Shown here: piece by piece, positions 5,193 to 34,060 of the stretch
How the letters are laid out: every line of letters starts with the position of its first letter
Position numbering within the stretch: the stretch's first letter is position 1
Assembly: GCF_003019035.1 (NCBI RefSeq)
Contig: NZ_CP027447.1
Strand: one strand, 5' to 3'
DNA: 64,000 nucleotides
From: Escherichia coli
GTDB taxonomy: Bacteria; Pseudomonadota; Gammaproteobacteria; Enterobacterales; Enterobacteriaceae
The notes under the pieces: model-generated
The model's input: only the letters and a program-made list of their open reading frames with translations
What the model was told of the DNA's origin: nothing
Database searches by the model: none
Made by a program: the position numbers and the translations under genes

Positions 5193-5227
5193 TCTCCCTT
5201 TCAGGGAGAGGGCCGGGGTGAGGGTAA
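5193..5227. repeat. GC-rich hairpin repeat unit (CTCCCT-loop-AGGGAG followed by GGCCGGGGTGAGGG)
   Basis: Same family recurs at 8476, 14941, 24661, 24735, 33951 and 34026. Confidence 0.6.
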
Positions 5228-5300
5228 CAACCTGCACCTTTGTACTTTTTAATCAATCTTCGCCGGGGGCCATGCGCTCCCGCTGTTGTGGAGGTTACCC

Positions 5301-6068
5301 ATGTGCGAATTGCTCGGGATGAGCGCCAACGTCCCTACCGATATCTGCTTTAGTTTCACCGGACTTGTACAGCGTGGTGGTGGAACCGGGCCACATAAAG
5401 ATGGCTGGGGCATTACCTTTTACGAAGGTAAAGGCTGTCGCACATTTAAAGATCCGCAACCCAGCTTTAATTCCCCCATCGCCAAACTTGTCCAGGACTA
5501 CCCGATAAAATCCTGTTCGGTGGTGGCTCATATTCGCCAGGCGAATCGGGGAGAGGTGGCGCTGGAAAATACTCACCCGTTTACCCGCGAGTTATGGGGG
5601 CGTAACTGGACTTATGCCCATAATGGACAACTGACGGGCTACAAATCACTGGAAACCGGCAACTTCCGCCCGGTCGGTGAAACCGATAGCGAAAAAGCCT
5701 TTTGCTGGCTCCTGCATAAATTAACGCAGCGTTACCCGCGCACACCGGGCAACATGGCGGCAGTGTTTAAATATATCGCCTCACTGGCGGATGAACTGCG
5801 GCAGAAGGGCGTTTTCAACATGCTGCTTTCTGACGGGCGCTATGTAATGGCGTATTGCTCGACTAATTTACACTGGATCACCCGCCGCGCGCCGTTTGGC
5901 GTGGCAACGTTGCTGGATCAGGATGTGGAAATCGACTTCAGCTCGCAGACCACACCGAATGATGTGGTTACGGTGATTGCGACACAGCCGCTGACGGGCA
6001 ATGAAACCTGGCAAAAGATTATGCCAGGCGAATGGCGCTTATTTTGCCTCGGGGAGCGTGTAGTTTGA
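5301..6068 (+). CDS. yafJ: Class II glutamine amidotransferase domain protein
   Basis: N-terminal MCELLGM (Cys2 nucleophile) typical of class II GATase; GGAGG RBS at 5290. Confidence 0.85.
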
Positions 6069-6779
6069 TGCCAGCTGTGGTTGCACAACTTCGTGGCTTA
6101 ACGGCTTGCTGACCACGTAACGGCCATTGACCACAGAAACGGTCGGTGGCTTACGGGTTTGCTCAAAGTAGTCGTAACCTGGCTTCAGCTGCTCCCAGAA
6201 GTCCTTAAAGTTGGAATATTTATGGCGCTTCATATTGGCGTCGGTCATGCGGAACGGGTAAATACTCACTTGCACGCTCGGCTGACCAAAAACCAGCGCA
6301 CCAGTAACGAACTGGAAGATCTCATCAATACCCTGATTGGTCATCGCGTAGCAGCCGATGGAAACACAATCGCCGTGGATCATCAGATATTTCCCTTCAT
6401 AACCATGCGCACGGTCATAGGCATTGGGGAATCCAATATTAATCGCTTTGTAGTAACGGCTGTCTGGTTTTAACTGATTACGCTGGACGCTATAAAACCC
6501 TTCCGGGCTTTTGAAATCGCCCTGACGCTGTTTTGGCCCTAAGCCGCCGGAATATTTACAGATTTTATAGCTGTCGAGCAGTTGATATTGCTCGCCCATT
6601 TTGACGTAGAGATCGAGCGTACGTTCTTCCTTGAAGATCTGGATGTAGACAGGGGATCCCATCAACTGCTGCTTATACTCTTTGCTCACTGGCGTGGTCG
6701 AGCTACTGCTGCCCAGCAAACCGGCAAACGAAACGCACGGGATCAACAACATCGCAAGAATTAATGCGATTTTACGCAT
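6039..6779 (-). CDS. yafK: L,D-transpeptidase family periplasmic protein (YkuD domain)
   Basis: 246-aa ORF with signal peptide and YkuD-like HGxxxxxxxSxGC motif (...[14 protein letters not shown]...). Confidence 0.85.
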
Positions 6780-6934
6780 ACTGCTTATTCCTTGATAAAA
6801 CGGTTACACACGCCAGGACGGCAAAATGGATCCCAAATCGGAATAGTCTGGATTGGGAAGGCTCACATTATCACCAAAAGAGTTTTACGCAAGCCTGTCG
6901 GCGCAGGGTTTACAAATTTCATCGGCAGCGGGCT

Positions 6935-7213
6935 TTACCCAAAGAGCGCCGCGTGAGTTCCAGTTCTCTCAAATCGTAAAAGTTTATCGGTAAGTTTGTA
7001 AATCAGGATCCAGTCCGGTTCGACATGAGCATCGCGATAACCTTTCCATGAACCTTGCAGCGGGTGGTCTTTATAAACAGCTGGAAGCAGTAAAGTATTA
7101 TTGATAAGAAGCGTCATAAGATATTTCAATTTATTCATATCCTTATGACGCTTTTGTGCAAGTTTTACATCCTTTGAAAATTGTCCCGAGTATTCAATAT
7201 CCCTTTGAATCAT
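6935..7213 (-). CDS. yafQ: RelE/YafQ family toxin (mRNA interferase)
   Basis: 92-aa ORF immediately downstream of the antitoxin gene, RelE-like sequence. Confidence 0.85.
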   Translation of the reverse strand: MIQRDIEYSGQFSKDVKLAQKRHKDMNKLKYLMTLLINNTLLLPAVYKDHPLQGSWKGYRDAHVEPDWILIYKLTDKLLRFERTGTHAALFG

Positions 7214-7215
7214 AT

Positions 7216-7476
7216 TTAAATTCCTAATTTATCAAATAAATCATCGGCGTCTTTGGCCTTATGAACACCAACGCCAGCTTCGCTGTTTTTGATTGATTGA
7301 ATAGTTAATTGATTAGGCTCGCGTAAATCAAACGGCAATGCCTTTTCACGCGCGACTTTTGTGAGGGTTATGCGAACCAGGTCAGAGATGGTCAGCCCCA
7401 TCCCGGCCAGTACGTCCGCCGCCTGATTCTTCAGATCTTCATCGATTCGGGCGCGAACAAACGCGTTAGCAGCCAT
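7216..7476 (-). CDS. dinJ: DinJ antitoxin (RHH fold)
   Basis: 86-aa ORF, 2-bp gap to yafQ, LexA box just upstream. Confidence 0.85.
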   Translation of the reverse strand: MAANAFVRARIDEDLKNQAADVLAGMGLTISDLVRITLTKVAREKALPFDLREPNQLTIQSIKNSEAGVGVHKAKDADDLFDKLGI

Positions 7477-7492
7477 TGGGGTATCTCCTGTG

Positions 7493-7508
7493 CTGTATAT
7501 TTATTCAG
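7493..7508. promoter_or_regulatory. LexA (SOS) box upstream of dinJ-yafQ
   Basis: CTGTATATTTATTCAG matches CTG-N10-CAG consensus, 17 bp upstream of the dinJ start. Confidence 0.7.
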
Positions 7509-7661
7509 CTTGAATTGTAGCTCAAATGAGCAACAGCGACAATCCATGAGTAATTTAATAAACGGATGTTTTTACATAATTAACTGAAATATATTTATTA
7601 ATTTTATAATAATGGTTTATTAAGTTTGTTCAGGTACGGGCCGGGATACACTGCAACATCA

Positions 7662-8435
7662 ATGCATGACCAGCCATTATTGAGAATGTCTTTGCCGTCG
7701 ATTCCCTCTTTTGTGTTGTCGGGATTATTGTTGCTTTGCTTGCCGTTTTCTTCATTTGCCAGCGCCACCACATCACATATCTCTTTCAGCTACGCCGCCC
7801 GCCAGCGGATGCAAAACCGTGCGCGTTTATTAAAACAGTACCAAACCCATCTGAAAAAACAGGCCAGCTATATTGTGGAAGGCAATGCCGAAAGCAGAAA
7901 GGCGCTGCGCCAGCACAACCGCGAACAGATAAAACAGCATCCAGAATGGTTTCCTGCGCCGCTCAAGGCGAGTGACAGACGCTGGCAGGCGCTGGCGGAG
8001 AACAACCATTTCTTAAGCAGCGACCATCTACACAACATCACCGAAGTGGCGATTCACCGCCTGGAGCAGCAGCTTGGCAAGCCTTACGTCTGGGGCGGCA
8101 CGCGGCCCGATCAAGGCTTCGACTGTAGCGGGTTGGTTTTTTATGCCTACAACAAGATCCTCGAGGCGAAACTCCCGCGCACGGCTAATGAGATGTATCA
8201 CTACCATCGGGCAACGATTGTGGCGAATAACGACCTGCGCCGGGGAGATTTGCTGTTTTTCCATATTCACAGCCGCGAGATAGCCGATCATATGGGGGTG
8301 TATCTGGGAGACGGTCAGTTTATCGAGTCACCACGTACCGGCGAAACCATTCGGATAAGCCGGTTAGCTGAACCTTTCTGGCAGGATCATTTTTTAGGCG
8401 CGCGGCGGATTTTGACGGAAGAGACGATTTTGTAG
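7662..8435 (+). CDS. yafL: NlpC/P60 family peptidoglycan endopeptidase-like lipoprotein
   Basis: Signal peptide, then NlpC/P60 core (...YVWGGTRPDQGFDCSGLVFYAY...HMGVYLGDGQFIES...). Confidence 0.85.
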   Translation: MHDQPLLRMSLPSIPSFVLSGLLLLCLPFSSFASATTSHISFSYAARQRMQNRARLLKQYQTHLKKQASYIVEGNAESRKALRQHNREQIKQHPEWFPAPLKASDRRWQALAENNHFLSSDHLHNITEVAIHRLEQQLGKPYVWGGTRPDQGFDCSGLVFYAYNKILEAKLPRTANEMYHYHRATIVANNDLRRGDLLFFHIHSREIADHMGVYLGDGQFIESPRTGETIRISRLAEPFWQDHFLGARRILTEETIL

Positions 8436-8475
8436 GACGGCAATACTGCGAAAAAGTTAAAGTCGTACACGTTTT

Positions 8476-8505
8476 TCTCCCTCGCCCCAAAGGGGCGAGG
8501 GGACA
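8476..8505. repeat. GC-rich hairpin repeat unit (CCTCGCCCC-AAA-GGGGCGAGG) at the left edge of the Flag-2 locus
   Basis: Perfect 9-bp stem; member of the repeat family listed at 5193. Confidence 0.6.
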
Positions 8506-8532
8506 GTCCGAGACCTTATATAGTCTCCCCCA

Positions 8533-10626
8533 TCAACTCAACGCCCCCATAATCTTCAACTCCAGCTCGTCCGGCACTTCGTTATACGACAGCACATGCA
8601 GCCCCGGCGCAAACAATCTCGCATAGCGCGCCAGCAAAGGGCGCAACTGCGGTGGCACCAGCAGCACAGGGTCTTTCCCCGCCGCTTTCATCTGCTCCTT
8701 CACTTGCGGCATCGTACTCTGGAACTGGTTGAGCATATTCGGGTCAACCGGCACGCTGTCGAGCATCACTTTGCCGGCCTGTTGCGCCTGATTCACCACG
8801 TTGGTCAGCAGATTTTCCAGCTCATTATTCAGCGTATACACCGTCAGCTCCTGCTTGCGAACGAACGGATGGGTAATGCTGCGCCGCAGCGCCAGGCGCA
8901 CATCTGCCGCCAGCAGAATATGATCTTTGGTCACCGCACTACTGGCGACAAGCACGGTGGCGATGGTGACGATATCGCGCAGGGAAACGCCTTCAGTCAG
9001 CAGCGCCCGGTACACTTTCAGCAACTGGCTGTAATTCAGCGCCGCGCTCAAATCCTCCGCCAGGCGCGGTGCCATCGACGACAAACGGTTATGCAGCTGA
9101 GTAATATCGTCATAGTTAAACAAATCAGGAATATAGCTGCGCACAATCTTATTCACATGTGTGGCAATTACGCTGGCGCTGTCGATCACCTGATACCCCA
9201 TATTCAGCGCCTTCGCCTTCTGCGCGGGCTGGATCCAGGTGACCGGCATCCCATATGCCGGGTCATTCCCCAGTACGCCGTCAATCTCGCCGTAGGTTTC
9301 GCTGGAGGGCAGGGCCATCAGTTTATCCGCCGGAATATCCGCTTCATCAGCCTTAATGCCGTTGATGAAAATGGCGTACTGGCTGGGCTTGAGACGGAAG
9401 TTTTCCCGAATACGGATCTCCGGCAGCAGCACGCCGTTACCGTCGGATATCACCTGCCGCACGCCGCGAATCCGCTGGGTGAGCGGGTTCCCCTGCGCTT
9501 TGTCCACCAGCGCCACCAGCTTGTAGCCGAGGCTTAAGCTGATGGGCTCGATCAGCGGAATGGTTTCCCAACTGACCTGTTGCTCGCTGGTTTCGGTGAT
9601 GGTTCGGGTCAGCGTTTCGAGGCTTTTCTCCTCCGCCTCCGCCGCCTGCGGGCGTTTGCTCATCCGCCAGCCGGTAAAGCCAAGCAGGGCGCTGAACAGC
9701 AAAAATGGCAGATGCGGCATCCCCGGCACCACCGCCAGCACAAACATGATCCCGGTGGCGGTGTAGAGCACCGACGGACTTGCCAGCAGCTGGTGGCGCA
9801 CGTCATGGGCGATATCGCCGTTGTCGCTGACGCGGGTGACGATAATTGCCGCCGCGGTGGAGAGCAGCAGGGACGGGATCTGCGCCACCAGCCCGTCGCC
9901 GATGGTCATCAGCACATATTGCTGGAAGGCGGCGTCGGCGCTCAGGTTGTATTTGAAGATCCCGATACAGACGCCGCCGATCAGGTTGATCGCCAGAATC
10001 ATCATCCCGGCGATGGCATCGCCGCGCACAAACTTCGATGCCCCGTCCATCGCGCCGTAGAAATCGGCCTCGCTGGCAACATCTTTACGCCGGGTTTGCG
10101 CCTGCGCCTGGTTGATCAATCCGGCGTTAAGATCGGCGTCAATCGCCATCTGCTTGCCGGGCATCGCGTCCAGGGTAAAGCGGGCAGAAACCTCGGAAAT
10201 ACGCTCGGCCCCTTTGGTGACGACGATAAAGTTGATGATCATCAGGATGATAAACACCACAAAGCCGACGACAAAGTTGCCGCCAATCACCACCTGACCA
10301 AATGACTCAATCACCTTACCCGCCGCGCCTGCGCCGAGATGCCCGTGCAGCAGCACCACGCGCGTAGAAGCAACGTTAAGCGTCAGGCGCATTAGGGTGG
10401 TGATCAGCAAAATGGTCGGGAACAGGCTGAATTCCAGCGGTCGTTTCGCCGACACCGCCACCAGCAGCACCATCACCGCCAGCACAATGTTGAAGGTGAA
10501 CAGAATATCCAGCAACGCAGGCGGCAGCGGCAGAATAACCATCGCCAGAATACACAGGATCACCAGCGGCACGCCGAGATTGCCGCCGCGCAGCAGCGCG
10601 AGGAACGATTTAGTTGTTTTCGCCAT
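8533..10626 (-). CDS. lfhA: Flagellar export apparatus protein FlhA homologue
   Basis: 697-aa ORF; N-terminal TM region and FHIPEP motifs. Confidence 0.9.
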   Translation of the reverse strand: MAKTTKSFLALLRGGNLGVPLVILCILAMVILPLPPALLDILFTFNIVLAVMVLLVAVSAKRPLEFSLFPTILLITTLMRLTLNVASTRVVLLHGHLGAGAAGKVIESFGQVVIGGNFVVGFVVFIILMIINFIVVTKGAERISEVSARFTLDAMPGKQMAIDADLNAGLINQAQAQTRRKDVASEADFYGAMDGASKFVRGDAIAGMMILAINLIGGVCIGIFKYNLSADAAFQQYVLMTIGDGLVAQIPSLLLSTAAAIIVTRVSDNGDIAHDVRHQLLASPSVLYTATGIMFVLAVVPGMPHLPFLLFSALLGFTGWRMSKRPQAAEAEEKSLETLTRTITETSEQQVSWETIPLIEPISLSLGYKLVALVDKAQGNPLTQRIRGVRQVISDGNGVLLPEIRIRENFRLKPSQYAIFINGIKADEADIPADKLMALPSSETYGEIDGVLGNDPAYGMPVTWIQPAQKAKALNMGYQVIDSASVIATHVNKIVRSYIPDLFNYDDITQLHNRLSSMAPRLAEDLSAALNYSQLLKVYRALLTEGVSLRDIVTIATVLVASSAVTKDHILLAADVRLALRRSITHPFVRKQELTVYTLNNELENLLTNVVNQAQQAGKVMLDSVPVDPNMLNQFQSTMPQVKEQMKAAGKDPVLLVPPQLRPLLARYARLFAPGLHVLSYNEVPDELELKIMGALS

Positions 10627-11749
10627 CCAGTTTAAGCACCTCTTTGGGAATGGAAATATGTCTGTTCAGAGCCGGGCGCGGCTGTGCGCCCTCGCGCCAG
10701 TGTTTCATTTGCAGGACGTAGGTCAGAACGTGGGCGATAGCCCGGTAAAGCTGAAACGGAATTTGCTGGTTCACCTGGGTGGTGTAGTAAACCGAGCGCG
10801 CCAGTCGCGGGAACTCGACCACTTCCACCTGATTCTCAGTGGCGACCTGGCGAATATAGAGGGCGATTTCATCGGTGCCTTTCGCCACCACAAACGGCGC
10901 GGCGGCGCGAGACTGGTCATACTGCAACGCCACGGCGTAGTGGATCGGGTTGGTGATCACCACGTTGGCTTTCGGCACCACTTTGCGAATTTGCCCCATC
11001 GCCAGTTGCCGTTGCAGCCGCCGCACGCGCGCCTTCACTTCCGGCTTGCCTTCCTGATTTTTGTACTCTTCTTTCAGCTCCTGTTTGGTCATCTTCAGCC
11101 CTTTGGTAAACAGGGCTTTCGCCAGCGGTACGTCGATCAGCGCGAAGAAGATAAACAGGATGACAAAGTTGCGCATCACGCTGGCGTAGAGCGATAAACC
11201 ATCGTTAATTGCCAGTTTGAACGGCAGCGCCTGCAGGCCGAGAAAGGCGGCAAAGTTATTGCGCAGGCTTACCCACAGCATCACCAGTATCACCACCGAC
11301 TTCACCGTCATCTTTCCCGTTTCCGCCAGATGCTCGCTGGAAAACAGCCGCCCAATCCCTTTTAACGGACTGATTTTGCTGAAATCAGGGAGGATTTTTT
11401 TCGGCAGAAACAGCCAGCCGCCAGGCACCAGCGAGGAGAGCAGTGCGGCGGCGGGCATCGGCAGCAAGGTAAGAATAAACTTGCCGAGAATTAACAGGTG
11501 ATGGCGCAGAAACTGGCCGATCACATCCGGGTTATTAATCTCCTGCGCGTACTGATGCACGCTGATAAAACTCTCGCGCACAAAATCGGCATACCACGGG
11601 AAGCTGCTGGAGATCACCACAAATGCCGCAAACAGGCTCGCCGCCAGCCCCATATCCTTCGAGCGCGGCAGTTGCCCCTCTTCACGCGCTTTACGCAGCT
11701 TTTGCGCCGAGGGTTTCTCTGTTTTTTCTTCGCTGCTGCTATCCGCCAT
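10610..11749 (-). CDS. lfhB: Flagellar export apparatus protein FlhB homologue
   Basis: 379-aa ORF; N-terminus ...EKTEKPSAQKLRKAREEGQ... and NPIH(Y) autocleavage-type motif. Confidence 0.9.
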   Translation of the reverse strand: MADSSSEEKTEKPSAQKLRKAREEGQLPRSKDMGLAASLFAAFVVISSSFPWYADFVRESFISVHQYAQEINNPDVIGQFLRHHLLILGKFILTLLPMPAAALLSSLVPGGWLFLPKKILPDFSKISPLKGIGRLFSSEHLAETGKMTVKSVVILVMLWVSLRNNFAAFLGLQALPFKLAINDGLSLYASVMRNFVILFIFFALIDVPLAKALFTKGLKMTKQELKEEYKNQEGKPEVKARVRRLQRQLAMGQIRKVVPKANVVITNPIHYAVALQYDQSRAAAPFVVAKGTDEIALYIRQVATENQVEVVEFPRLARSVYYTTQVNQQIPFQLYRAIAHVLTYVLQMKHWREGAQPRPALNRHISIPKEVLKLDGENN

Positions 11750-12521
11750 AGTGACCTTTCAGCGCGTCGAGTTGCTGCAACACAAAATTCGCCAGATGCA
11801 GATAGTGATCCGGCAGGTTGTAGAGCAGGGTGGCGAAGCAAACCAGCCCCGCCAGCATGTTGATGGGAAAGCCGAGCGAAAAAAGGTTCAGCGGCGGCGC
11901 AATGCGGTTAAGCAGGCCAAAGCAGCCCTGCACAATCAGCATGATAAAAGTGGTCGGCAGCGCCAGCAGTGATGCGGACGCCAGTACCCAGCTAAAGGCC
12001 AGCGCGATGGTGCGCAGGGTTTGCGGATGCAGCGCGTTGCCAATCGGCCAGTAGGTGAAGCCCTTATACAGCACGCTTACCAGCAGCAGATGCCCGTCCA
12101 TGGCAAAAAACAGCAGGATCGCGTAGACGTTAATTAATTCCGCCAGCACGGTTGTTGATGCGCCGCTGCTCGGGTCGTTCATCACCGCCATGCTCATCCC
12201 CATATTGAACGAGAGAATTTGCCCGGCCAGTTGCAGCGCCAGAAACAGAAACTGAAACATCAGCCCGAACAACATGCCCCATAAGATTTGCTCCACCGTC
12301 AGGATCAAACTGTTGAGCGAGAGCAAATCATGGGGAATGGGATGGGGGATCAACGGCGTGATGATGATTGCCAGCGCCAGCGACAAAATAATCCGCACGC
12401 GCACGGTCAGGGCGCTGTTATCCAGCACCGGCACATAGCGCAGAAACGCCATAATGCGCACGAAGGGAAACCACAGCCCCAGCGCCAGATCCATCAGTTG
12501 CGTAACGTCGCTTGTGCGCAT
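11739..12521 (-). CDS. lfiR: Flagellar export apparatus protein FliR homologue
   Basis: 260-aa polytopic membrane ORF; start set at the Met immediately after the lfiQ stop. Confidence 0.85.
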   Translation of the reverse strand: MRTSDVTQLMDLALGLWFPFVRIMAFLRYVPVLDNSALTVRVRIILSLALAIIITPLIPHPIPHDLLSLNSLILTVEQILWGMLFGLMFQFLFLALQLAGQILSFNMGMSMAVMNDPSSGASTTVLAELINVYAILLFFAMDGHLLLVSVLYKGFTYWPIGNALHPQTLRTIALAFSWVLASASLLALPTTFIMLIVQGCFGLLNRIAPPLNLFSLGFPINMLAGLVCFATLLYNLPDHYLHLANFVLQQLDALKGHYGG

Positions 12522-12522
12522 C

Positions 12523-12795
12523 TTAATGCACCAGCAGGGCGGCCTGGGTAAACAGGTGAATGCAGAGATCATGCAACTGGATAATCATCCATTTGCCGCA
12601 CACGCCCAGCACCACCAGCGTGACAATCAGCCTCGGCAAAAAGCTCAGGGTCTGTTCGTTAATCTGCGTCACCGCCTGGAACACGCTCACCAGCAGGCCG
12701 ACCAGCAGGCTTGGCACCACCAGTACCGAAACCAGCAAAATCACTACTTTAATGCCGCTGGCGACAATGTCGGCGGCTACGTCTACGGTCAACAT
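12523..12795 (-). CDS. lfiQ: Flagellar export apparatus protein FliQ homologue
   Basis: 90-aa two-TM ORF in conserved fliPQR order. Confidence 0.85.
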   Translation of the reverse strand: MLTVDVAADIVASGIKVVILLVSVLVVPSLLVGLLVSVFQAVTQINEQTLSFLPRLIVTLVVLGVCGKWMIIQLHDLCIHLFTQAALLVH

Positions 12796-12797
12796 AA

Positions 12798-14762: not shown

Positions 14763-14940
14763 GGCTTACTTTCTCTGCTGTAATGGTATGGGTGTTTCTG
14801 TGCACGCAAATCCGGCTGTGACACAAGGTGAGGTATTAAATAGAGGGGGAGTGAAAGGGGCAAATTATTAATAGGGTGAAAAAATAATTAATCGATTAAT
14901 TGCTTAATGGGAGTTATTTTCGCCAATCAGTCTGCGGTCT

Positions 14941-14981
14941 GTCCCCTCGCCCCATCCGGGGAGAGGGTTAGGGTGAGGGGG
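14941..14981. repeat. GC-rich hairpin repeat unit in the lfiM-lafK divergent intergenic region
   Basis: CCCCTCGCCCCATCCGGGGAGAGGGTTAGGGTGAGGGG; same family as 5193 and 8476. Confidence 0.6.
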
Positions 14982-15134
14982 CATCACAGATGTCGAAATT
15001 AACAGTATTAATATCTAACTAATTGTTTACCATCAAATAATATTTTTATTATCGTTTAATTCGAACTTGTTAATCCCGCCGGTGATACGCTTCAGAACAT
15101 CCTGTTTTCTGTCGCTACTGATATCGTTCACCCT

Positions 15135-16121: not shown

Positions 16122-16135
16122 CCCGGAAGTTAAAA

Positions 16136-16477: not shown

Positions 16478-16481
16478 CCCT

Positions 16482-19830: not shown

Positions 19831-21160
19831 TTTTTCCGCTTTCGATAACGCCCTGCGCTCGCTGGAGTCGATCCCGCTGGCCCGCGTCGCCGGGCGGCTG
19901 GTGCGCCTTAATGGCATCCTGCTGGAGAGCGTCGGCTGCCCGCTAATGACCGGGCAGCTGTGTCGCATCGAAAGCGCCAATCACACGCTGATCGACGCGC
20001 AGGCCGTGGGCTTTAATCGCGACATCACTTACTTAATGCCGTTTAAACAACCGGTCGGCCTGATGGCAGGCGCGCGCGTCTTCCCGGAAGAAAAAGCCCA
20101 CGACATCCTGATTGGCGAAAGCTGGTTAGGCCGCGTGGTTAACGGCCTCGGCGAACCGCTGGATGGCAAAGGCCGCCTGAACGGCAACGACCTTCTGTCG
20201 CCGCTGCCGCCGTCGGTTAATCCCTTAACCCGCCGTTCGGTGGACGAACCGCTGGACGTGGGCGTGAAAGCGATCAACGGCCTGCTGACCATCGGCAAAG
20301 GCCAGCGTGTCGGGCTGATGGCGGGCAGCGGCGTCGGGAAAAGCGTGCTGCTGGGGATGATCACCCGCCAGACCAAAGCCGACATTGTGGTGGTCGGGTT
20401 GATTGGCGAACGCGGGCGCGAAGTAAAAGAGTTTATCGACCACTCGCTGGGCGCGGACGGGCTGGCAAAGTCTATCGTCGTCGTCGCGCCCGCCGATGAA
20501 TCGCCGCTGATGCGCCTGAAAGCCACCGAACTGTGCCACTCCATCGCTGCCTGGTTTCGCGACCGCGGGCATCACGTTTTACTGCTGGTGGATTCCCTGA
20601 CCCGTTACGCGATGGCCCAGCGGGAAATAGCTCTCTCGCTCGGCGAACCGCCCGCCACCAAAGGCTATCCGCCGTCGGCATTCGGCATGATCCCCAAACT
20701 GGTCGAGAGCGCAGGCAACAGCGAAAGCGCGGGATCGATGACCGCCATCTACACCGTGTTGGCGGAAGGCGACGATCAGCAAGATCCGATTGTCGACTGC
20801 GCCCGTGCGGTGCTGGACGGGCATATCGTATTAACCCGCAAACTGGCGGAAGCGGGGCACTATCCGGCTATTGATATCGGCCAGTCGATCAGCCGTTGCA
20901 TGAATCAGGTGACCAGCCTGGAACATCAGCAATCCGCCCGTGCGTTAAAGCAAAACTACGCCGCGTATATGGAGATCAAACCGCTGATCCCGCTCGGCGG
21001 CTACGTGGCAGGTGCCGACGCCAGCGTCGACAAAGCGGTAAAAATGTTCCCGGCTATCGAGCGTTTTTTGCGCCAGGAGATGTGCGAACCCGCCTCCCTG
21101 GAACTGGTGCAAAGCCGCCTGCAAATTCTCTTTCCTGGCGTCAAAAAGGCAGAACAGTAA
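19823..21160 (+). CDS. lfiI: Flagellum-specific ATP synthase FliI homologue
   Basis: Walker A (GSGVGKS) and F1/T3SS ATPase core. Confidence 0.9.
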   Translation: MSDFSAFDNALRSLESIPLARVAGRLVRLNGILLESVGCPLMTGQLCRIESANHTLIDAQAVGFNRDITYLMPFKQPVGLMAGARVFPEEKAHDILIGESWLGRVVNGLGEPLDGKGRLNGNDLLSPLPPSVNPLTRRSVDEPLDVGVKAINGLLTIGKGQRVGLMAGSGVGKSVLLGMITRQTKADIVVVGLIGERGREVKEFIDHSLGADGLAKSIVVVAPADESPLMRLKATELCHSIAAWFRDRGHHVLLLVDSLTRYAMAQREIALSLGEPPATKGYPPSAFGMIPKLVESAGNSESAGSMTAIYTVLAEGDDQQDPIVDCARAVLDGHIVLTRKLAEAGHYPAIDIGQSISRCMNQVTSLEHQQSARALKQNYAAYMEIKPLIPLGGYVAGADASVDKAVKMFPAIERFLRQEMCEPASLELVQSRLQILFPGVKKAEQ

Positions 21161-21597: not shown

Positions 21598-21599
21598 CC

Positions 21600-24612: not shown

Positions 24613-24660
24613 GGTGTTTGGGTGAGTTAATGGGTGAATGTGATGAATGTGCGTGCTGAT

Positions 24661-24770
24661 GCCCTCACCCCGACCCTCTCCCACAGGGAGAGGGAGAAAA
24701 CCAGCGCCGATTTTAACACCGTGCTCGATCGGTTCCCTCGCCCCTTTGAGGAGAGGGTTAGGGGGAGGGG
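24661..24770. repeat. Two GC-rich hairpin repeat units (24661-24696 and 24735-24770) between the transferase gene and the upstream 309-aa gene
   Basis: CCCTCTCCC-ACA-GGGAGAGGG and CCCTCGCCCC-TTTG-AGGAGAGGGTTAGGGGGAGGGG; same family as 5193. Confidence 0.6.
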
Positions 24771-24790
24771 AAAAGCGCGCACAGAGCGAC

Positions 24791-25720: not shown

Positions 25721-25847
25721 AGGTGGCTTCCAGTCTTTATTACTTTGCGGAATGTGCAATAAGCGTGCCGGGAATTTTTGTAATCAAAAACAAGGGATTG
25801 AGAATCAGGCGGAAAATCCGTTTCCGCGATGGGGGAAGGAATTGTCG

Positions 25848-26276: not shown

Positions 26277-26288
26277 TTCATCGGCCTC

Positions 26289-26567: not shown

Positions 26568-26647
26568 CGCAACCTCGTCTCGGTATTTGGGTGGGTTACT
26601 CCGGTAAAGCGGTTAACAGGCGGCAAAACTTTAATCGCCTGCGCAAA

Positions 26648-27406: not shown

Positions 27407-27414
27407 TTAAAAAT

Positions 27415-27430
27415 TGGCACAGCGATTGCA
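27415..27430 (+). promoter_or_regulatory. Sigma54 (-24/-12) promoter upstream of lfgB
   Basis: TGGCAC-AGCGA-TTGCA, exact match to TGGCAC-N5-TTGCW. Confidence 0.7.
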
Positions 27431-27466
27431 TAGCGTATGCGGATTGAAGCAGGAGTGACGCAGGAA

Positions 27467-27802
27467 ATGGGGATCAGTTTTCAGCAGGCATTGGGAGTAC
27501 ATCCGCAGGCAGTGAAGTTACGTCTTGAGAGGACCGAGCTACTGACTGCGAATCTGGCGAATGTCGATACGCCAAATTTCAAGGCTAAAGATATTGATTT
27601 TGCCAGGGAGATGCAACGGGCAAATAACGCGGCGGTGGATGTCCAGTACCGCGTGCCGATGCAGCCGTCAGAAGATGGCAACACCGTGGAACTGAACAGC
27701 GAACAGGCACGGTTTTCACAAAATAGTATGGATTATCAAAGCAGTCTGACCTTTCTGAATCTGCAAATCAGCGGCATCAGAGAGGCCATTGAAGGGAAAT
27801 AA
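27467..27802 (+). CDS. lfgB: Flagellar basal-body rod protein FlgB homologue
   Basis: ...LLTANLANVDTPNFKAKDIDF... rod-protein N-terminal motif; start set downstream of the predicted sigma54 transcription start (ORF track 27437). Confidence 0.8.
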   Translation: MGISFQQALGVHPQAVKLRLERTELLTANLANVDTPNFKAKDIDFAREMQRANNAAVDVQYRVPMQPSEDGNTVELNSEQARFSQNSMDYQSSLTFLNLQISGIREAIEGK

Positions 27803-27804
27803 GC

Positions 27805-28236
27805 ATGTCATTTACTGATATCTATCAGATTTCCGGCTCGGCGATGACGGCGCAAACGCTACGTCTGAATACCGTCGCCAGTAACCTGGCGAATGCTAAT
27901 GCACCTGCCGGCAGCGAGGCGCAGGCGTATAAAGCGCGCAGCCCGGTGTTTGCGGCGGTGTATCACCACAGCTTGCTGGTGGGTACACATCGTCATGCCA
28001 TTGATGGTGCCAGCGTGCAGGTGCAGGACGTGCTGCAAACCGGCGGGGCGGTGAAACGCTATGAACCGCATTCGCCGCTGGCGGATGCTAACGGGGATGT
28101 CTGGTATCCCGACGTCAACGTGGTGGAACAGATGGCGGACATGATGTCGGCCTCGCGCGATTTTGAAACCAATGTCGATGTGCTCAACAACGTGAAAAGT
28201 ATGCAGCAAAGCCTGCTGAAACTGGGAGAAGCCTGA
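27805..28236 (+). CDS. lfgC: Flagellar basal-body rod protein FlgC homologue (uninterrupted)
   Basis: 143-aa ORF with rod-protein N-terminal (...ASNLANANA...) and C-terminal motifs. Confidence 0.85.
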   Translation: MSFTDIYQISGSAMTAQTLRLNTVASNLANANAPAGSEAQAYKARSPVFAAVYHHSLLVGTHRHAIDGASVQVQDVLQTGGAVKRYEPHSPLADANGDVWYPDVNVVEQMADMMSASRDFETNVDVLNNVKSMQQSLLKLGEA

Positions 28237-28949
28237 TGAATACCCTGGCGCTGAATGCGCAATCGCCGCAGCCGACCGCCACGGCGGAAAGCAACAACGT
28301 GGCGGCCAGCGACACGCAAAGTAGCAGCGATAGCTCGCCCGTCGATACCTTCCTGACGCTGTTTGTCGCTGAGATCCAAAACCAGGACCCGACCGACCCG
28401 ACCGACGCCACCGAATATATCGACCAGCTTTCGTCAATGGCGCAGGTGGCGATGATGGAAGAGATGAGCGTGCAGGCGAATACCAACGCGGTGTTGATGA
28501 GCAACATTCAGGTGATGGCGCTCGGCAACCTGGTGGGCGACGACATTATGGTGCAGACCACCGCCTTGCAGGTGAGTGACCAGACCATTAACGGTCGCGC
28601 CACGCTTGACGACGCCTGTACCACCGCCGATCTCCACTTTACCGATGCCGCAGGCGATGACTATACGGTGTCGCTGATCCCGGAAGGGAGTTCGTCCGTC
28701 GGGCCAGGCCAGGTGGATTTCTCGGTGAATCCCGCGGATTACGGTATCCCGCCGGGTGATTACGACGTCTCGGTGGTCACCAACACCGGGGAAGAAGAGG
28801 TGCCGATTGAAGTCTCCGGCGAAGTGGAAGATGTGCGCATCCCGCTCGACGGCAGCTCTCCGGTGCTCAATGTTGCAGGTGTAGGCGAAGTGCCGTTCAC
28901 CATGATTAGCCAGTTTGGCGTACCCGATGCCGACAGTGATGTGGCGTAA
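28236..28949 (+). CDS. lfgD: Flagellar hook cap/assembly protein FlgD homologue
   Basis: 237-aa ORF between the flgC and flgE homologues. Confidence 0.8.
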   Translation: MNTLALNAQSPQPTATAESNNVAASDTQSSSDSSPVDTFLTLFVAEIQNQDPTDPTDATEYIDQLSSMAQVAMMEEMSVQANTNAVLMSNIQVMALGNLVGDDIMVQTTALQVSDQTINGRATLDDACTTADLHFTDAAGDDYTVSLIPEGSSSVGPGQVDFSVNPADYGIPPGDYDVSVVTNTGEEEVPIEVSGEVEDVRIPLDGSSPVLNVAGVGEVPFTMISQFGVPDADSDVA

Positions 28950-28971
28950 GAACAATTAACAGGAAGAAACA

Positions 28972-30174
28972 ATGAGTTATGAAATTGCCGCAACGGGGCT
29001 GAATGCCGTTAACGAACAGCTGGACGGGATCAGTAACAACATCGCCAACGCCGGAACGGTAGGCTATAAGTCGATGACCACCCAGTTTTCAGCCATGTAT
29101 GCCGGAAGTCAGGCGATGGGCGTCAGCGTGGCAGGCACCGCGCAAAGTATTTCGCGCGGCGGTTCGCTGGTATCCACCGGTAACGCGCTGGATCTGGCGA
29201 TTAACGACGACGGTTTTTTTGTTACCTGCGACAGCGCGGGCAACATTTCTTATACCCGCGCCGGATCGTTTGAAACCGACAAAAACGGCTATATCGTCAA
29301 CGCCTCAGGCGCTTATTTGCAGGGCTATCCGGTCGATGACACGGGCACCCTGCAAACCGGTACAGTCACCGATATCCAGATCAAAACTGGCAATATTCCG
29401 GCGCAGGCCAGCAGCAGCCTGACCTTTACCGCCAACTTCGATGCCAGCGACGACGCTATCGACCGCACTACCGTACCGTTCGACGCGACCAACAGCAGCT
29501 CGTACACCGACAGCTACACCACCACGGTGTACGACTCATTAGGCAACGAACATTCGGTATGCCAGTACTTCACCAAAACCAGCGACAACACCTGGGAAGT
29601 GCAGTACACCTTCGACGGTCAGCAGCAGACCGGCGTTCCAGCGACGACGTTAACCTTCGACCCGAACACCGGGAAGCTGACTTCGCCAACTACGCCGCAG
29701 ACCATTGAATTTCAGACCGACGCCGCCGCACCCATCGACTTAACCGTCGATTACTCCACCTGTACGCAATACGGTTCTGAATTTTCTGTCACCACCAACG
29801 CCGCCGACGGCTACGCCTCCGCGACTCAGAACGGTGTGCAGGTCGATGACGATGGCAAAGTTTACGCCACCTACAGCAACGGCGAGCGCATGTTGCAGGG
29901 CCAGGTGGTGCTGGCGACTTTCCCTAACGACGACGGCCTGCAAGCCGTAAGCGGTACCGCGTGGGTACAAACCGGGGAATCCGGCACGCCACTGATTGGT
30001 GTTCCCGGTTCCGGAACCTGCGGCACGCTCACGTCGGGAGCGCTTGAGAGCTCTAACGTCGATATTACCAGCGAACTGGTTAACCTGATGACCGCCCAGC
30101 GTAACTATCAGGCCAACACCAAAGTGATCGCCACCAGCACGCAGCTCGATGACGCGCTGTTCCAGGCAATGTAA
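28972..30174 (+). CDS. lfgE: Flagellar hook protein FlgE homologue
   Basis: 400-aa ORF with conserved axial-protein N and C termini (...LVNLMTAQRNYQANTKVI...). Confidence 0.9.
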   Translation: MSYEIAATGLNAVNEQLDGISNNIANAGTVGYKSMTTQFSAMYAGSQAMGVSVAGTAQSISRGGSLVSTGNALDLAINDDGFFVTCDSAGNISYTRAGSFETDKNGYIVNASGAYLQGYPVDDTGTLQTGTVTDIQIKTGNIPAQASSSLTFTANFDASDDAIDRTTVPFDATNSSSYTDSYTTTVYDSLGNEHSVCQYFTKTSDNTWEVQYTFDGQQQTGVPATTLTFDPNTGKLTSPTTPQTIEFQTDAAAPIDLTVDYSTCTQYGSEFSVTTNAADGYASATQNGVQVDDDGKVYATYSNGERMLQGQVVLATFPNDDGLQAVSGTAWVQTGESGTPLIGVPGSGTCGTLTSGALESSNVDITSELVNLMTAQRNYQANTKVIATSTQLDDALFQAM

Positions 30175-30911
30175 TGGATCGCTTGATTTATACCGCCCTG
30201 AGCGGGGCTTCTCAGACGTTGTATGAGCAGCAGATTAGCGCCAACAACCTGGCGAACGTCAACACCAACGGTTTTCGCGCCGATATGGCAATGGCGACCA
30301 ATGACAAGGTGAAAGGCGGCGGCTTCGACACTCGCTATATGGCGCAGGAAGGGGCCAGCGGCGTGAACGACAGCACGGGTGCGGCGGAGAAAACCGAACG
30401 CCCGCTGGACGTGGCGATTCAGGGCGCGGGTTACATTGCGGTGCAGGATAAAAACGGCAACGAAGTCTATACCCGCAACGGCAACATTCAGCAGGACGAC
30501 CAGGGGCAACTGACCATCGACGGCAATCTGGTGCTGGGGGATAACGGGCCGATCATTCTGCCGCCGAACGCTATTGCTTCGTTTGGCAGCGACGGCACGC
30601 TGTCGGTGACGCCCGATGACGGCGACGTGACCGCGACGATGGATATCGACCGCCTGAAGCTGGTGGATATTCCGGTTGCTAACCTGGCGAAAAATCCTGA
30701 AGGGATGCTGATAACGGCGGATGGCGTTCCGGCCCAGCGCGATGAAAACATCAAAGTCAGCGGCGGTTTTCTCGAAGGCAGCAACGTCTCGGCGGTGAGC
30801 GAAATGATGTCGTCCATCGCCATGAATCGCCAGTTTGAAGCGCAGATCAAGATGATGAAAACCGCCGAAGATATCAGCGACGCGGGCAACCGCTTATTGC
30901 GCGGCTCGTAA
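30174..30911 (+). CDS. lfgF: Flagellar basal-body rod protein FlgF homologue
   Basis: 245-aa rod-family ORF. Confidence 0.85.
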   Translation: MDRLIYTALSGASQTLYEQQISANNLANVNTNGFRADMAMATNDKVKGGGFDTRYMAQEGASGVNDSTGAAEKTERPLDVAIQGAGYIAVQDKNGNEVYTRNGNIQQDDQGQLTIDGNLVLGDNGPIILPPNAIASFGSDGTLSVTPDDGDVTATMDIDRLKLVDIPVANLAKNPEGMLITADGVPAQRDENIKVSGGFLEGSNVSAVSEMMSSIAMNRQFEAQIKMMKTAEDISDAGNRLLRGS

Positions 30912-30921
30912 CCGCACATCG

Positions 30922-30957
30922 TAGGCCGGATAAGGCGTTCACGCCGCATCCGGCAAC
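30922..30957. repeat. REP (repetitive extragenic palindromic) element
   Basis: GTAGGCCGGATAAGGCGTTCACGCCGCATCCGGCAA. Confidence 0.8.
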
Positions 30958-30989
30958 TGCGGCCCAAAAATAACACGGAATTTACCACC

Positions 30990-31775
30990 ATGAACGCAGC
31001 ACTATGGATCAGCAAAACCGGCCTCTCGGCGCAGGATGCTGAAATGAGCGCGATTGCCAACAACATCGCCAACGTTAACACCACCGGCTTCAAGCGCGAT
31101 CGGGTGATGTTTCAGGATCTGTTCTACCAGACCCAGGAAGCGCCGGGCGCGATGCTCGACCAGAACAACATCATGCCGACCGGGCTGCAATTCGGGAGCG
31201 GCGTACGCATTGTCGGTACCCAGAAAACCTTCACCGAAGGCAACGTTGAGACCACCGACAACGCGATGAATGTCGCCATTATGGGGCAGGGATTTTTGCA
31301 GGTGCAAAAGGCCAACGGCGATATCGCCTATACCCGCGATGGCAACTTACAGGTGAACGCCGACGGCGTACTGACCAACTCGCAGGGCTTGCCGTTGCAG
31401 CCGGAAATCGACGTTCCGGCGGGGGCGACCAACGTTGCGTTTGGTGAGGACGGCACGGTGACGGCGATCTTACCCGGCGACAGCGATGTGACCGAGTTAG
31501 GGCAACTGACACTGGTGAACTTCGCTAACCCGGCGGGGCTCTCCGCCGAGGGCGACAACCTGTATCTGGAAACCGCTGCCAGCGGTCAGCCGACCGAAGG
31601 CGTACCGGGCGAAGATGGGCTTGGCACCTTGCAGGATAACGCGCTGGAAGGATCGAACGTGGATATCGTCAACGAGATGGTGGCGATGATTACGGTGCAA
31701 CGCGCGTACGAGATGAACGCCAAAATGGTCTCGGCGGCAGACGATATGTTGCAGTACATCAGTCAGACGCTGTAA
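30990..31775 (+). CDS. lfgG: Flagellar distal rod protein FlgG homologue
   Basis: 261-aa rod-family ORF. Confidence 0.9.
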   Translation: MNAALWISKTGLSAQDAEMSAIANNIANVNTTGFKRDRVMFQDLFYQTQEAPGAMLDQNNIMPTGLQFGSGVRIVGTQKTFTEGNVETTDNAMNVAIMGQGFLQVQKANGDIAYTRDGNLQVNADGVLTNSQGLPLQPEIDVPAGATNVAFGEDGTVTAILPGDSDVTELGQLTLVNFANPAGLSAEGDNLYLETAASGQPTEGVPGEDGLGTLQDNALEGSNVDIVNEMVAMITVQRAYEMNAKMVSAADDMLQYISQTL

Positions 31776-31793
31776 GGCCGAAATGTCGGATGC

Positions 31794-31825
31794 GACGCTG
31801 ACGCGTCTTATCCGACCTACAAGAG
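31794..31825. repeat. REP-like palindromic element inside the lfgG-lfgH spacer
   Basis: GTCGGATGCGACGCTGACGCGTCTTATCCGAC. Confidence 0.7.
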
Positions 31826-31857
31826 CACATAACTCACTGTATTTAAACAGGCAGAAC

Positions 31858-32523
31858 GTGAAAAATTATCTCTGGCTGGTGGCGCTGCTTCCCCTGCTTA
31901 GCGGGTGTGAATCGCAGGCCATTCTGGTCAAAAAAGACGACGCATACTTTGCGCCACCAACCACCGAAGCGCCGCCTCCGGCAGACGGGCGTGCCGGGGG
32001 CGTGTTTGAAACCGGCTACAACTGGTCGCTAACCGCCGACCGGCGGGCTTACCGCGTGGGCGATATCCTGACGGTGATCCTCGAAGAATCCACCCAGTCG
32101 AGCAAACAGGCGAAAACCAACTTCGGCAAAAGCAACACCGTTGATATCGGCGCGCCGACCATTTTTGGGCACACCAAAGATAAGCTTTCCGGCTCTATCG
32201 ACGCCAACCGCGACTTTGACGGCAGCGCCACTTCCCAGCAGCAGAACAGCCTGCGTGGGGAGATCACTGTTTCCGTCCATGCGGTGCAGCCTAACGGTAT
32301 TCTCGAAATTCGCGGCGAGAAATGGCTCACCCTCAACCAGGGCGATGAGTACATCCGCTTAAGCGGCCTGGTACGCGCCGACGACATCCAGAACGACAAC
32401 TCGGTTTCCTCTCAGCGGATCGCCGATGCCCGCATCTCCTATGCCGGACGCGGCGCGTTAAGCGACGCCAACGCCGCAGGCTGGTTGACGCGGCTGTTTT
32501 ACCATCCTCTGTTCCCGATTTAA
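31858..32523 (+). CDS. lfgH: Flagellar L-ring lipoprotein FlgH homologue (probable GTG start; ORF-track start at 31783 lies in the REP element)
   Basis: Lipoprotein signal ...LLPLLSGC followed by FlgH family sequence. Confidence 0.8.
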
Positions 32524-32537
32524 TGCCGGAGAGTGCA

Positions 32538-33638
32538 ATGCAAAACTGGATAAAGGCCGCAGCGATCGCTGTAAGTCTGACGCTGCCCGGCGTGGCGCTG
32601 GCGCAATCGCTGGAGTCGCTGGTCAACGTACAAGGTGTGCGTGAAAACCAACTGGTCGGCTACAGCCTGGTGGTCGGCCTTGACGGCACGGGTGATAAAA
32701 ACCAGGTCAAATTTACCAACCAGACCATCACCAATATGTTGCGCCAGTTTGGCGTGCAACTGCCGAATAAAATCGACCCGAAAGTGAAAAACGTCGCCGC
32801 GGTAGCGGTGAGCGCCACGCTGCCGCCGATGTACTCGCGCGGGCAGACCATCGATGTCACTGTTTCGTCGATTGGCGATGCTAAAAGTATTCGTGGCGGC
32901 ACTTTGTTGCTGACCCAGTTGCACGGCGCGGATGGCGAAGTTTATGCGCTGGCGCAGGGCAGCGTGGTGGTGGGCGGGATGAATGCCACCGGGGCCAGCG
33001 GTTCGAGCGTAACGGTTAATACGCCAACCGCCGGGTTAATTCCTAACGGCGCAACGGTAGAGCGCGAGATCCCCAGCGATTTTCAGATGGGCGACACTAT
33101 CACCCTCAACCTGAAACGTCCGTCGTTTAAAGATGCCAACAATATTGCGGCGGCGATTAACGCCTCGTTTGGCGGCATTGCTACTGCGCAGAGCTCTACC
33201 AACGTCAGCGTGCGCGCGCCCACCAGCCCCGGCGCGCGGGTGGCATTTATGTCGCAACTGGATGATGTACAGGTGCAGGCAGAGAAAATCCGCGCCCGTG
33301 TGGTGTTTAACTCGCGTACCGGCACGGTGGTGATGGGCGATGGCGTTGCGCTGCACGCGGCGGCGGTGTCGCACGGCAGTTTGACCGTCTCGATTAACGA
33401 AACCAGCAACGTCAGCCAGCCGAATGCCTTTGCGAGTGGGCGCACGACGGTAACGCCGCAGAGCAATATCGCGGTGAATCATGCCCGTCCGGGCGTGGTG
33501 AGTTTGCCGGAGTCGAGCAGCCTGAAAACGCTGGTCAATGCGTTGAACAGTTTGGGCGCGACGCCGGACGACATTATGTCGATTTTACAGGCGCTGCATG
33601 AGGCGGGCGCGCTGGATGCCGACCTGGAGGTGATCTGA
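32538..33638 (+). CDS. lfgI: Flagellar P-ring protein FlgI homologue
   Basis: Signal peptide plus FlgI family sequence; start at MQNWIK. Confidence 0.9.
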
Positions 33639-33937
33639 TGAAAGTGAACGCCAGCGGCGGGATTGATGGCAGCGATGCGTTAATGGGGCCGAAGGTTCAG
33701 GCCAATGATATTAAGCAGGCCGCGGAGCAGTTTGAGGCGATTTTTTTACGCAACATGCTGAAAGAGATGCGTAAAACCAACGAGTTGTTCGATTCGAAAG
33801 ATAACCCATTTAACAGCGATTCGGTGCGCATGATGCAGGGGTTTTATGACGATGAGTTGTGTAACACCCTGGCGCAGCAGCACGGGATTGGGATTGCGGC
33901 GATGATTGTGAAGCAGTTGTCGCCGAAGGGGAAATGA
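33638..33937 (+). CDS. lfgJ: FlgJ-like rod-binding domain protein (99 aa, no muramidase domain)
   Basis: Matches the N-terminal rod-binding part of FlgJ (...QAAEQFEAIFLRNMLKEMR...); ORF ends before any glucosaminidase domain. Confidence 0.75.
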   Translation: MKVNASGGIDGSDALMGPKVQANDIKQAAEQFEAIFLRNMLKEMRKTNELFDSKDNPFNSDSVRMMQGFYDDELCNTLAQQHGIGIAAMIVKQLSPKGK

Positions 33938-33950
33938 GGGGCGCGCTTTG

Positions 33951-34060
33951 CCCCTCACCCTAACCCTCTCCCCAAAGGGGCGAGGGGACCGATTGAGCGC
34001 GGAGGTGAATATGGCGCAGGTTTTCGCCCTCTCCCTGTGGGAGAGGGCCGGGGTGAGGGC
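33951..34060. repeat. Two GC-rich hairpin repeat units (33951-33987 and 34026-34060) between lfgJ and lfgK
   Basis: CCCTCTCCCC-AAA-GGGGCGAGGGG and CCCTCTCCC-TGT-GGGAGAGGGCCGGGGTGAGGG; same family as 5193. Confidence 0.6.

Follow-up and report, generated by a model that had tools for sequence, protein, structure and literature searches.

GC-rich hairpin repeats in and around an Escherichia coli Flag-2 locus belong to the known BoxC family

Seven GC-rich hairpin units lie between positions 5178 and 34074 of a 64,000-nucleotide stretch of Escherichia coli DNA (contig NZ_CP027447.1 of assembly GCF_003019035.1; the whole stretch is called the window below), most of them inside the Flag-2 locus. 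The units are ordinary members of BoxC, a repeat family that is already known and has been redescribed as the PIT element and as TMECO. Their occupancy is highly polymorphic across strains, and they most probably have no dedicated role in Flag-2, being structure-prone, selfish or neutral intergenic filler that would be turned over by slippage, repair and import. A preliminary description of the same DNA had assigned the units to no catalogued class; the published BoxC/PIT/TMECO consensus fits them, and a published table already includes the copies in the Flag-2 locus of strain SMS-3-5.

All seven hairpin sites were located at the expected coordinates (5193, 8476, 14941, 24661, 24735, 33951 and 34026). 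The strict hairpin pattern CCCTCKCCC-N3-5-GGGMGAGGG has four matches in the window against 0.00 expected from 100 dinucleotide-preserving shuffles, and four copies of the G-tract tail GGKTRGGGKGAGGG are present where shuffling predicts 0.07. A looser three-block pattern recovers five complete units (CCCTCKCCC, loop, GGGMGAGGG, 3 nt, GGGKGAGGG), at 14944-14979, 24735-24769 and 34027-34059 on the + strand and at 24662-24694 and 33952-33986 on the - strand. A profile hidden Markov model (HMM) made from the window copies and their flanks and run on the whole 64 kb has exactly seven matches, six with E-values of 1e-12 to 1e-16 and one, at 8479-8514, with 4e-5; it detects no BoxC to the right of 34075. 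The coordinates, the shuffles and the seven-match profile search thus bear out the earlier count of sites. The units are as follows.

5178-5239 (core about 5191-5224), + strand: BoxC/TMECO type B, degenerate; loop 2 is CCG; E 3.6e-15.
8471-8514, - strand: hairpin-only BoxC remnant, CCCTCGCCCC AAA GGGGCGAGGG, blocks 1 and 2 only; E 4e-5 over HMM positions 2-37.
14931-14990 (core 14944-14979), + strand: BoxC/TMECO type A, complete; loop 2 is TTA; E 1.1e-12.
24647-24705 (core 24662-24694), - strand: BoxC/TMECO type B variant, complete; loop 2 is TCG; E 1.2e-14.
24722-24783 (core 24735-24769), + strand: BoxC/TMECO type A, complete; loop 2 is TTA, and block 2 (GAGGAGAGGG) has a single mismatch; E 1.4e-16.
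33938-33997 (core 33952-33987), - strand: BoxC/TMECO type A, complete; loop 2 is TTA; E 2.4e-16.
34015-34074 (core 34027-34060), + strand: BoxC/TMECO type B, complete; loop 2 is CCG; E 1.3e-13.

The assignment to BoxC follows from several independent features. The published TMECO consensus is 5'-CCCTCNCCC N3-6 GGGNGAGGG N3 GGGNGAGGG-3' (Holder et al. 2015, NAR 43:10126, PMC4666352), and five of the window units fit it with zero or one substitution. According to the same work, TMECO is the BoxC repeat discovered in E. coli in the 1990s, and the PIT element is its redescription by Hoyne and Maher in 2000; the 23 copies of MG1655 are all intergenic, fall into type A (second loop TTA) and type B (CCG), include five inverted A+B pairs, and are accompanied by degenerate copies and by hairpin-only remnants of pairs, termed the 'palindrome effect' (PMC4666352). 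Other accounts of the family are those of Bachellier and colleagues in the 1990s and a second one by Hoyne and Maher in 2002. The window units share the three-block consensus, the A and B variants, the A+B pairs, the intergenic position and the degenerate or hairpin-only derivatives. Loop 2 is TTA in the units at 14944, 24735 and 33952 and CCG in those at 5193 and 34027; the unit at 24662 departs from the catalogued type B in having TCG rather than CCG, a variant also present in SMS-3-5 (Holder et al. 2015, Table S8). At the level of single letters, the core at 34027-34060 is identical to K-12 TMECO nos. 1 and 4 (CCCTCTCCCTGTGGGAGAGGGCCGGGGTGAGGGC) and the core at 33952-33987 to K-12 TMECO no. 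7 (CCCTCGCCCCTTTGGGGAGAGGGTTAGGGTGAGGGG). Finally, Table S8 lists TMECO nos. 153-155 of SMS-3-5 at 261597, 272864 and 272905 (PMC4666352), and these coincide with our profile matches in that genome: no. 153 is the copy between lfiM and lafK, no. 154 is the left unit of a pair at the variable position VR1, with a sequence identical to that in the window, and no. 155 is the right unit of that pair. The consensus, the two types, the pairs, the identical K-12 cores and the Table S8 entries therefore establish that the family was already known.

Wider searches describe a dispersed chromosomal family. Distant BLAST matches to the lfgJ-lfgK pair of the window (33938-34074) were found in 5413 of 5426 complete E. 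coli genomes, at a median of 17 places per genome; the published range among strains is 1 to 30 copies, most of which can be assigned to loci conserved across strains (Holder et al. 2015, Table S8, PMC4666352). An independent survey of E. coli stem-loop families includes BoxC with a length of 56 bp and 32 copies from the literature. Only three partial matches were found in 50,697 phage records, and in a plasmid collection the best matches are mostly to Mb-scale or chromosome-sized records, the full pair being found in only two E. coli plasmids below 100 kb. In an Rfam scan of the whole window at gathering thresholds, only a tRNA at 58558 passes and no family falls on BoxC; a permissive scan of 33800-34200 gave only chance-level, miRNA-like matches far under threshold.

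Gene context was taken from mapping the window onto the annotated genomes of E7-1N7, AR_0077 and SMS-3-5, on which all seven units are intergenic. Three loci with five units lie within Flag-2, one unit lies at its border and one lies outside, so that the placement given in the preliminary description holds for its Flag-2 sites, but the leftmost copy is 3.3 kb to the left of lfhA and outside the locus. This copy begins a few nucleotides past the gmhA/lpcA stop (5185), and yafJ follows 77 nt downstream of it; its block 1 is TTTTCTCCC in place of CCCTCTCCC, matching six of nine consensus positions, and its blocks 2 and 3 fit. The remnant at 8479 is situated between the convergent yafL and lfhA genes, the left Flag-2 border. 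The unit at 14944 sits between the divergent genes lfiM and lafK, whose starts are 182 nt and 156 nt away, respectively; it is flanked by two conserved blocks, which presumably contain the promoters of the two genes. The VR1 pair, with the 24662 unit as its left and the 24735 unit as its right half, separates the end of a lysine-N-methylase gene from the start of a glycosyltransferase gene, both on the - strand. In the lfgJ-lfgK pair the left unit starts at the base right after the lfgJ stop (TGA, 33935-33937), and about 70 nt separate the end of the right unit from the lfgK start (34143).

A single unit is about 56-60 bp long; inside conserved flanks it has a C-block, then a G-block complementary to it and then another G-block. 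The 5' end is (GTG)CTCGATCGGTY, that is (GTG)CTCGATCGGT..., in type A and GGTTTTCK in type B, and both types finish near GCGCGCAC. The inverted pairing noted previously is confirmed at two sites, 24647-24783 and 33938-34074, where A and B units stand on opposite strands; both sites hold the same composite of about 135 bp (type B, a spacer of about 40 nt, type A, head to head), in mutually opposite orientation. This arrangement differs from the K-12 pair between hrpB and mrcB, which is tail to tail with the units sharing GCGCGC. Successive units thus have alternating orientations and are joined by either of two linkers, in much the same way as REPs within BIMEs. The profile match of the 8479 remnant spans only the 5' half of the HMM, the third block being missing; on its 5' side, GTTTTTCT resembles the 5' flank of type B, and on its 3' side, GGGGACAGTCCGAG resembles the 5' flank of type A in reverse complement. 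This is exactly the structure that would remain if a tail-to-tail B+A pair, such as the one between hrpB and mrcB in K-12, had lost the segment between its two 9-bp CCCTCKCCC direct repeats. Both this copy and the degenerate one at 5193 are consistent with the decay products and remnants described by Holder et al.

The capacity of the units to form structure is considerable. With a folding tool that allows only Watson-Crick and GU pairs, single units are predicted to form hairpins of -23 to -31 kcal/mol, the 8479 remnant folds as RNA with -23.5 kcal/mol and a z-score of -3.6, and the two pairs fold into long hairpins of -76 and -83 kcal/mol with z-scores of about -6. In vitro, DNA oligonucleotides with the sequence of the G-rich strand adopt an intrastrand purine-motif triplex, as shown by circular dichroism and nuclear magnetic resonance (NMR) (Holder et al. 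2015; PMC4666352). The two G-blocks also make up the canonical G-quadruplex motif G3-N3-G3-N3-G3-N3-G3 (14957-14979, 24748-24770, 33952-33973 on the - strand, and other G-rich tails); GGGAGAGGGTTAGGGTGAGGG, for instance, contains four tracts of G3 separated by loops of 3 nt. The NMR data on the full-length DNA oligonucleotide favour the triplex (PMC4666352). In RNA a purine-motif triplex would be unexpected, and a quadruplex could compete with the hairpin.

Comparison of the five intergenic slots among the window and four other E. coli genomes reveals extensive differences in occupancy.

gmhA-yafJ (slot 1): degenerate type B unit in the window, E7-1N7, AR_0077 and SMS-3-5; a BIME of three REPs in K-12 MG1655.
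yafL-lfhA (slot 2): hairpin remnant in the window and E7-1N7; rayT flanked by REPs in AR_0077, SMS-3-5 and K-12.
lfiM-lafK (slot 3): BoxC type A in the window, E7-1N7 and SMS-3-5; a pair of REPs in AR_0077, within the same conserved flanks; deleted in K-12.
VR1 (slot 4/5): A+B pair in the window, AR_0077 and SMS-3-5; a single type A unit in opposite orientation in E7-1N7; deleted in K-12.
lfgJ-lfgK (slot 6/7): A+B pair in the window and AR_0077; two REPs in E7-1N7; five REPs in SMS-3-5; deleted in K-12.

The lfgJ-lfgK pair is 100% identical between the window and AR_0077, and a truly empty allele was not seen at any slot among the genomes compared. Among the 5426 complete E. coli genomes, about 1260 of which carry most of Flag-2, the window-type allele is present in 329 at slot 1, 127 at slot 2, 57 at slot 3, 703 for the slot 4/5 pair and at most about 124 for the slot 6/7 pair. 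Immediately to the right of the lfgJ-lfgK cassette stands a motif, TAAG-N15-GCCGCTTT (34085-34115), that is kept in strains with either BoxC or a BIME there; judged by eye, it resembles a sigma-28 (LafS/FliA-type) promoter for lfgK, the sigma-28 consensus being TAAA-N15-GCCGATAA.

At the yafL-lfhA border (8436-8532, 97 bp) the window lacks rayT (yafM/tnpA-REP) and its flanking BIMEs, has no hicAB, and holds the BoxC remnant alone. Three states have been described for the rayT locus, namely rayT present, rayT excised with the BIMEs kept, and replacement by hicAB (Ton-Hoang et al. 2012), and the window state is none of these. REPs persist elsewhere in the window. A dependence of BoxC occupancy on rayT absence was also considered and is ruled out: AR_0077, which has rayT, carries both pairs, and E7-1N7, which lacks it, has a BIME at lfgJ-lfgK.

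Outside Escherichia the units are largely missing from the corresponding loci. In a scan for LafK with one genome per species, which retained 80 loci with no other Escherichia species among them, no BoxC was found within 10 kb of lafK in the Flag-2 loci of Citrobacter, Phytobacter, Enterobacter, Erwinia, Yersinia, Budvicia and others; these loci are too divergent to define empty-site junctions. It follows that the units were added in particular lineages and do not belong to the conserved make-up of Flag-2. Among the non-Escherichia Flag-2 loci scanned, only Pseudocitrobacter has a BoxC pair at the VR1 position: P. faecalis DSM 27453 carries an A+B pair there (locus coordinates 20621-20757) and several REPs upstream of lafK, in slot 3 between the same conserved flanks. 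A metagenome-assembled genome labelled Pseudocitrobacter has two same-strand type A units (locus coordinates 10957-11087). The LafK proteins of Pseudocitrobacter are 95-97% identical to that of the window, against 82-84% for Citrobacter, and this likeness suggests a recent exchange of Flag-2 with Escherichia or, for the metagenome-assembled genome, mis-binning.

As to signals for gene expression, terminator-like or sigma-70-like matches are absent from the unit cores, and their totals in the window equal the shuffle expectation; a single weak terminator-like match in the VR1 spacer (24721-24702, - strand) is likewise within that expectation. No run of T follows any unit on either strand. Rho-independent terminators and attenuators resemble BoxC in being GC-rich stem-loops 3' of genes, but they differ in the U-tract, which is missing after the BoxC stem on either strand. 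Published assays of the family detected neither promoter nor terminator activity, and RNA polymerase and conjugation were unaffected (Holder et al. 2015; PMC4666352). Arrest of polymerase and formation of the triplex were confined to in vitro conditions; in vivo there was no stable triplex, and its guanines were unprotected (PMC4666352). With no T-run, with negative published assays and with presence that varies among strains carrying the same genes, the attenuator role proposed in the preliminary description is unsupported, and so is a role as terminator.

We infer that BoxC behaves as neutral or selfish filler, and that it turns over by slippage and repair, because regulatory signals and published assays are negative, the units vary freely among strains, and orthologous loci lack them. 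According to such a model, the units would occupy the few slots that tolerate extra DNA, which are those after stop codons, between convergent genes or between divergent promoters. Single strands of a unit can form a strong hairpin, and an inverted A+B pair can form a palindrome of about 130 nt. Replication slippage, repair and the homologous import of neighbouring alleles would then lead to units being gained, lost, eroded or exchanged, often for REP or BIME sequences, and the slots would so become local hotspots of indel polymorphism.

Two considerations weigh against this model. First, BoxC is unusually dense in Flag-2, as had been proposed: three of the seven TMECOs of SMS-3-5 lie inside its 39-kb Flag-2 locus, which is 0.8% of the chromosome, with a binomial P of about 1.6e-5, or about 9e-4 if the pair is counted as one event (both calculated by hand and post hoc). 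AR_0077 has 14 BLAST places genome-wide, of which three fall in a 49-kb stretch around Flag-2, two inside the locus and one at gmhA-yafJ. The local density is real, although post hoc and restricted to some lineages, and we found no published comment on it; the units are thus members of a catalogued class, but one that is locally enriched. Second, four of the five slots are directly 3' of a stop codon (gmhA, the convergent yafL/lfhA, the methylase gene and lfgJ), and this bears on the main rival explanation, according to which the units act in cis on RNA, their 3' hairpins shielding the upstream mRNA from 3'-5' exonucleases or stalling terminating ribosomes near the stop and so reducing expression of the upstream gene. 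Both mRNA protection and ribosome stalling at stop codons have reportedly been documented for REPs (Newbury 1987; Liang, Rudd and Deutscher 2015).

We consider such an action in cis rather improbable. The lfgJ-lfgK palindrome does begin at the base after TGA, the predicted hairpins are very stable, and the presence of REP or BIME sequences in the same slots elsewhere could mean functional equivalence. Against this, published tests of PIT/BoxC revealed no terminator, promoter or RNA polymerase effect, no U-run follows any unit, the lfiM-lafK copy is upstream of both genes and not at a 3' end, occupancy varies freely among strains, and the Flag-2 loci of other genera lack BoxC. A modest effect of a hairpin that abuts a stop codon, of the kind known for REPs, might nevertheless exist.

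The neutral turnover favoured here would be compatible with another explanation, which we hold to be possible but doubtful, namely that the units are, or once were, small non-autonomous elements similar to miniature inverted-repeat transposable elements (MITEs) that some enzyme would have inserted into permissive intergenic targets. Like the ERIC/IRU, Correia/NEMIS and RUP elements, BoxC is small, non-coding and intergenic, and the A+B pair of about 135 bp has terminal inverted repeats (GTGCGYGC...GCGCGCAC) and a strong, MITE-like predicted fold. The ends of the unit are discrete and conserved, the type A unit at VR1 points one way in the window and the other way in E7-1N7 although its flanks are the same, strains differ between 1 and 30 copies, and the orthologous Flag-2 loci of other genera lack the units, all of which would agree with insertion. 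The basic unit of about 56-60 bp, however, has no terminal inverted repeats of its own, and no target-site duplication is seen at any of the five slots in comparisons of filled with alternative alleles, none of which is empty. BoxC has no link to plasmids, phages or insertion sequence elements, and the majority of its copies can be placed at loci that strains have in common. We know of no transposase associated with it.

REPs and BIMEs share with BoxC the character of GC-rich intergenic palindromes, often of alternating orientation, in the same kind of slots. They are nevertheless distinct: the two have no sequence similarity, the REP core GCCGGATGCGRCG is not found in the units, a known enzyme, RayT/TnpA-REP, mobilises REPs (its gene lies between yafL and lfhA in K-12 and is absent from the window), and effects on mRNA are documented for REPs. 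A scan for the REP core (GCCKGATGCGRCG ... CGYCGCATCMGGC, one mismatch allowed) gives seven matches in the window, four of them recognisable intergenic REPs (30942, 31785, 37733 and 40015), and none overlaps a BoxC unit, in agreement with the earlier statement that the units differ from REP.

In four of the five slots (window 5190-5248, 8440-8538, 14890-15000 and 33938-34080) a REP or BIME replaces BoxC between the same conserved flanks in K-12, AR_0077, E7-1N7 or SMS-3-5. Three of the four REP slots that are free of BoxC (lfgF-lfgG, lfgG-lfgH and downstream of lafA) are constant across the four Flag-2 genomes; in the fourth, lafW-lafZ (VR2), the REP is gone in AR_0077 and a toxin-antitoxin pair is inserted there. 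Each sizeable intergenic region of Flag-2 in the window holds either BoxC or REP. Since BoxC slots alternate with REP/BIME in four cases of five, REP-only slots are mostly constant and the Flag-2 share of BoxC is disproportionate, it might be supposed that BoxC and REP/BIME are interchangeable occupants of a few 'switching' intergenic slots, an idea to which we give little credence. If true, it would imply a shared mechanism of insertion or replacement, or selection for a strong hairpin, and not neutral turnover. Bachellier and colleagues reportedly described, in 1997, boxC insertions at BIME-containing intergenic regions, and even such interchange would then be an extension and not a first report.

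The possibility that the units served as recombination substrates for a deletion of the kind that removed Flag-2 from K-12, as the preliminary description had suggested, can practically be dismissed. The MG1655 chromosome is collinear with the window as far as 10236 and resumes at 45557, the two aligned segments overlapping by 6 bp (endpoints about 10231-10236 and about 45557-45562), which places the endpoints inside lfhA (8533-10626, - strand) and lafU (45372-46328). The K-12 junction reads AAAGTTGAT|TGTCAA, and at the left and right endpoints the window reads GTTGAT|GATC and GTGGAT|TGTC, respectively, so that the junction microhomology is 3 bp exact (GAT) or five of six positions imperfect (GTKGAT). 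BoxC comes no closer than 1.7 kb to the left endpoint, is not found within 11 kb of the right one, and is absent from the remnant region of K-12. It is true that repeats flank and pepper Flag-2, and rearrangement around TMECO loci is significantly above that at control intergenic sites (Holder et al. 2015; PMC4666352). Yet the endpoints are within open reading frames, at microhomology only and at least 1.7 kb from any BoxC, and the literature likewise places the K-12 deletion within the two reading frames at short direct repeats. A part of BoxC in the K-12 Flag-2 deletion is thereby refuted.

The units should accordingly be labelled BoxC in annotations and not Flag-2-specific regulatory sites. 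As BoxC has been known since the 1990s and was studied biophysically and comparatively between 2000 and 2015, with the same copies in a published table, the import of these observations for biology at large is small. The remaining points of note are the density in Flag-2 and the alternation of BoxC and REP at the same slots, and the five slots offer usable strain markers and a compact test bed for the turnover of intergenic repeats.

A BoxC-like motif, CCCTCTCCCC-TYGC-GGGAGAGGG-CTG-GGGAGAGGG, was also observed directly downstream of a lafK-homologous sigma-54 activator gene in three further loci, two of which have inverted pairs (locus coordinates given).

Halopseudomonas xiamenensis: 11042-11232.
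Pseudomonas sp. MYb185: 10504-10636.
Marinobacter metagenome-assembled genome: 11212-11254.

These motifs may be a coincidence, GC-rich triplex motifs being abundant in those genomes.

The lineage of the window itself seems not to be closely represented among the 5426 genomes: over the 25 kb of 5000-29999 the best of them is 97.7% identical, and K-12 about 97%. Some intergenic alleles are nonetheless matched at 100% here and there in the collection, in strains such as SCU-301, FDAARGOS_497 and AR_0077. Further to the right, dinB is followed directly by yafP (47448-47460), and the yafN-yafO toxin-antitoxin pair of K-12 (about 750 bp) is missing. Between yafP and pepD, the segments 48300-49319 and 49832-50719 have no K-12 counterpart; ykfJ and prfH of K-12 are pseudogene fragments, and SMS-3-5 carries an intact RtcB-family RNA ligase gene and prfH between yafP and pepD.

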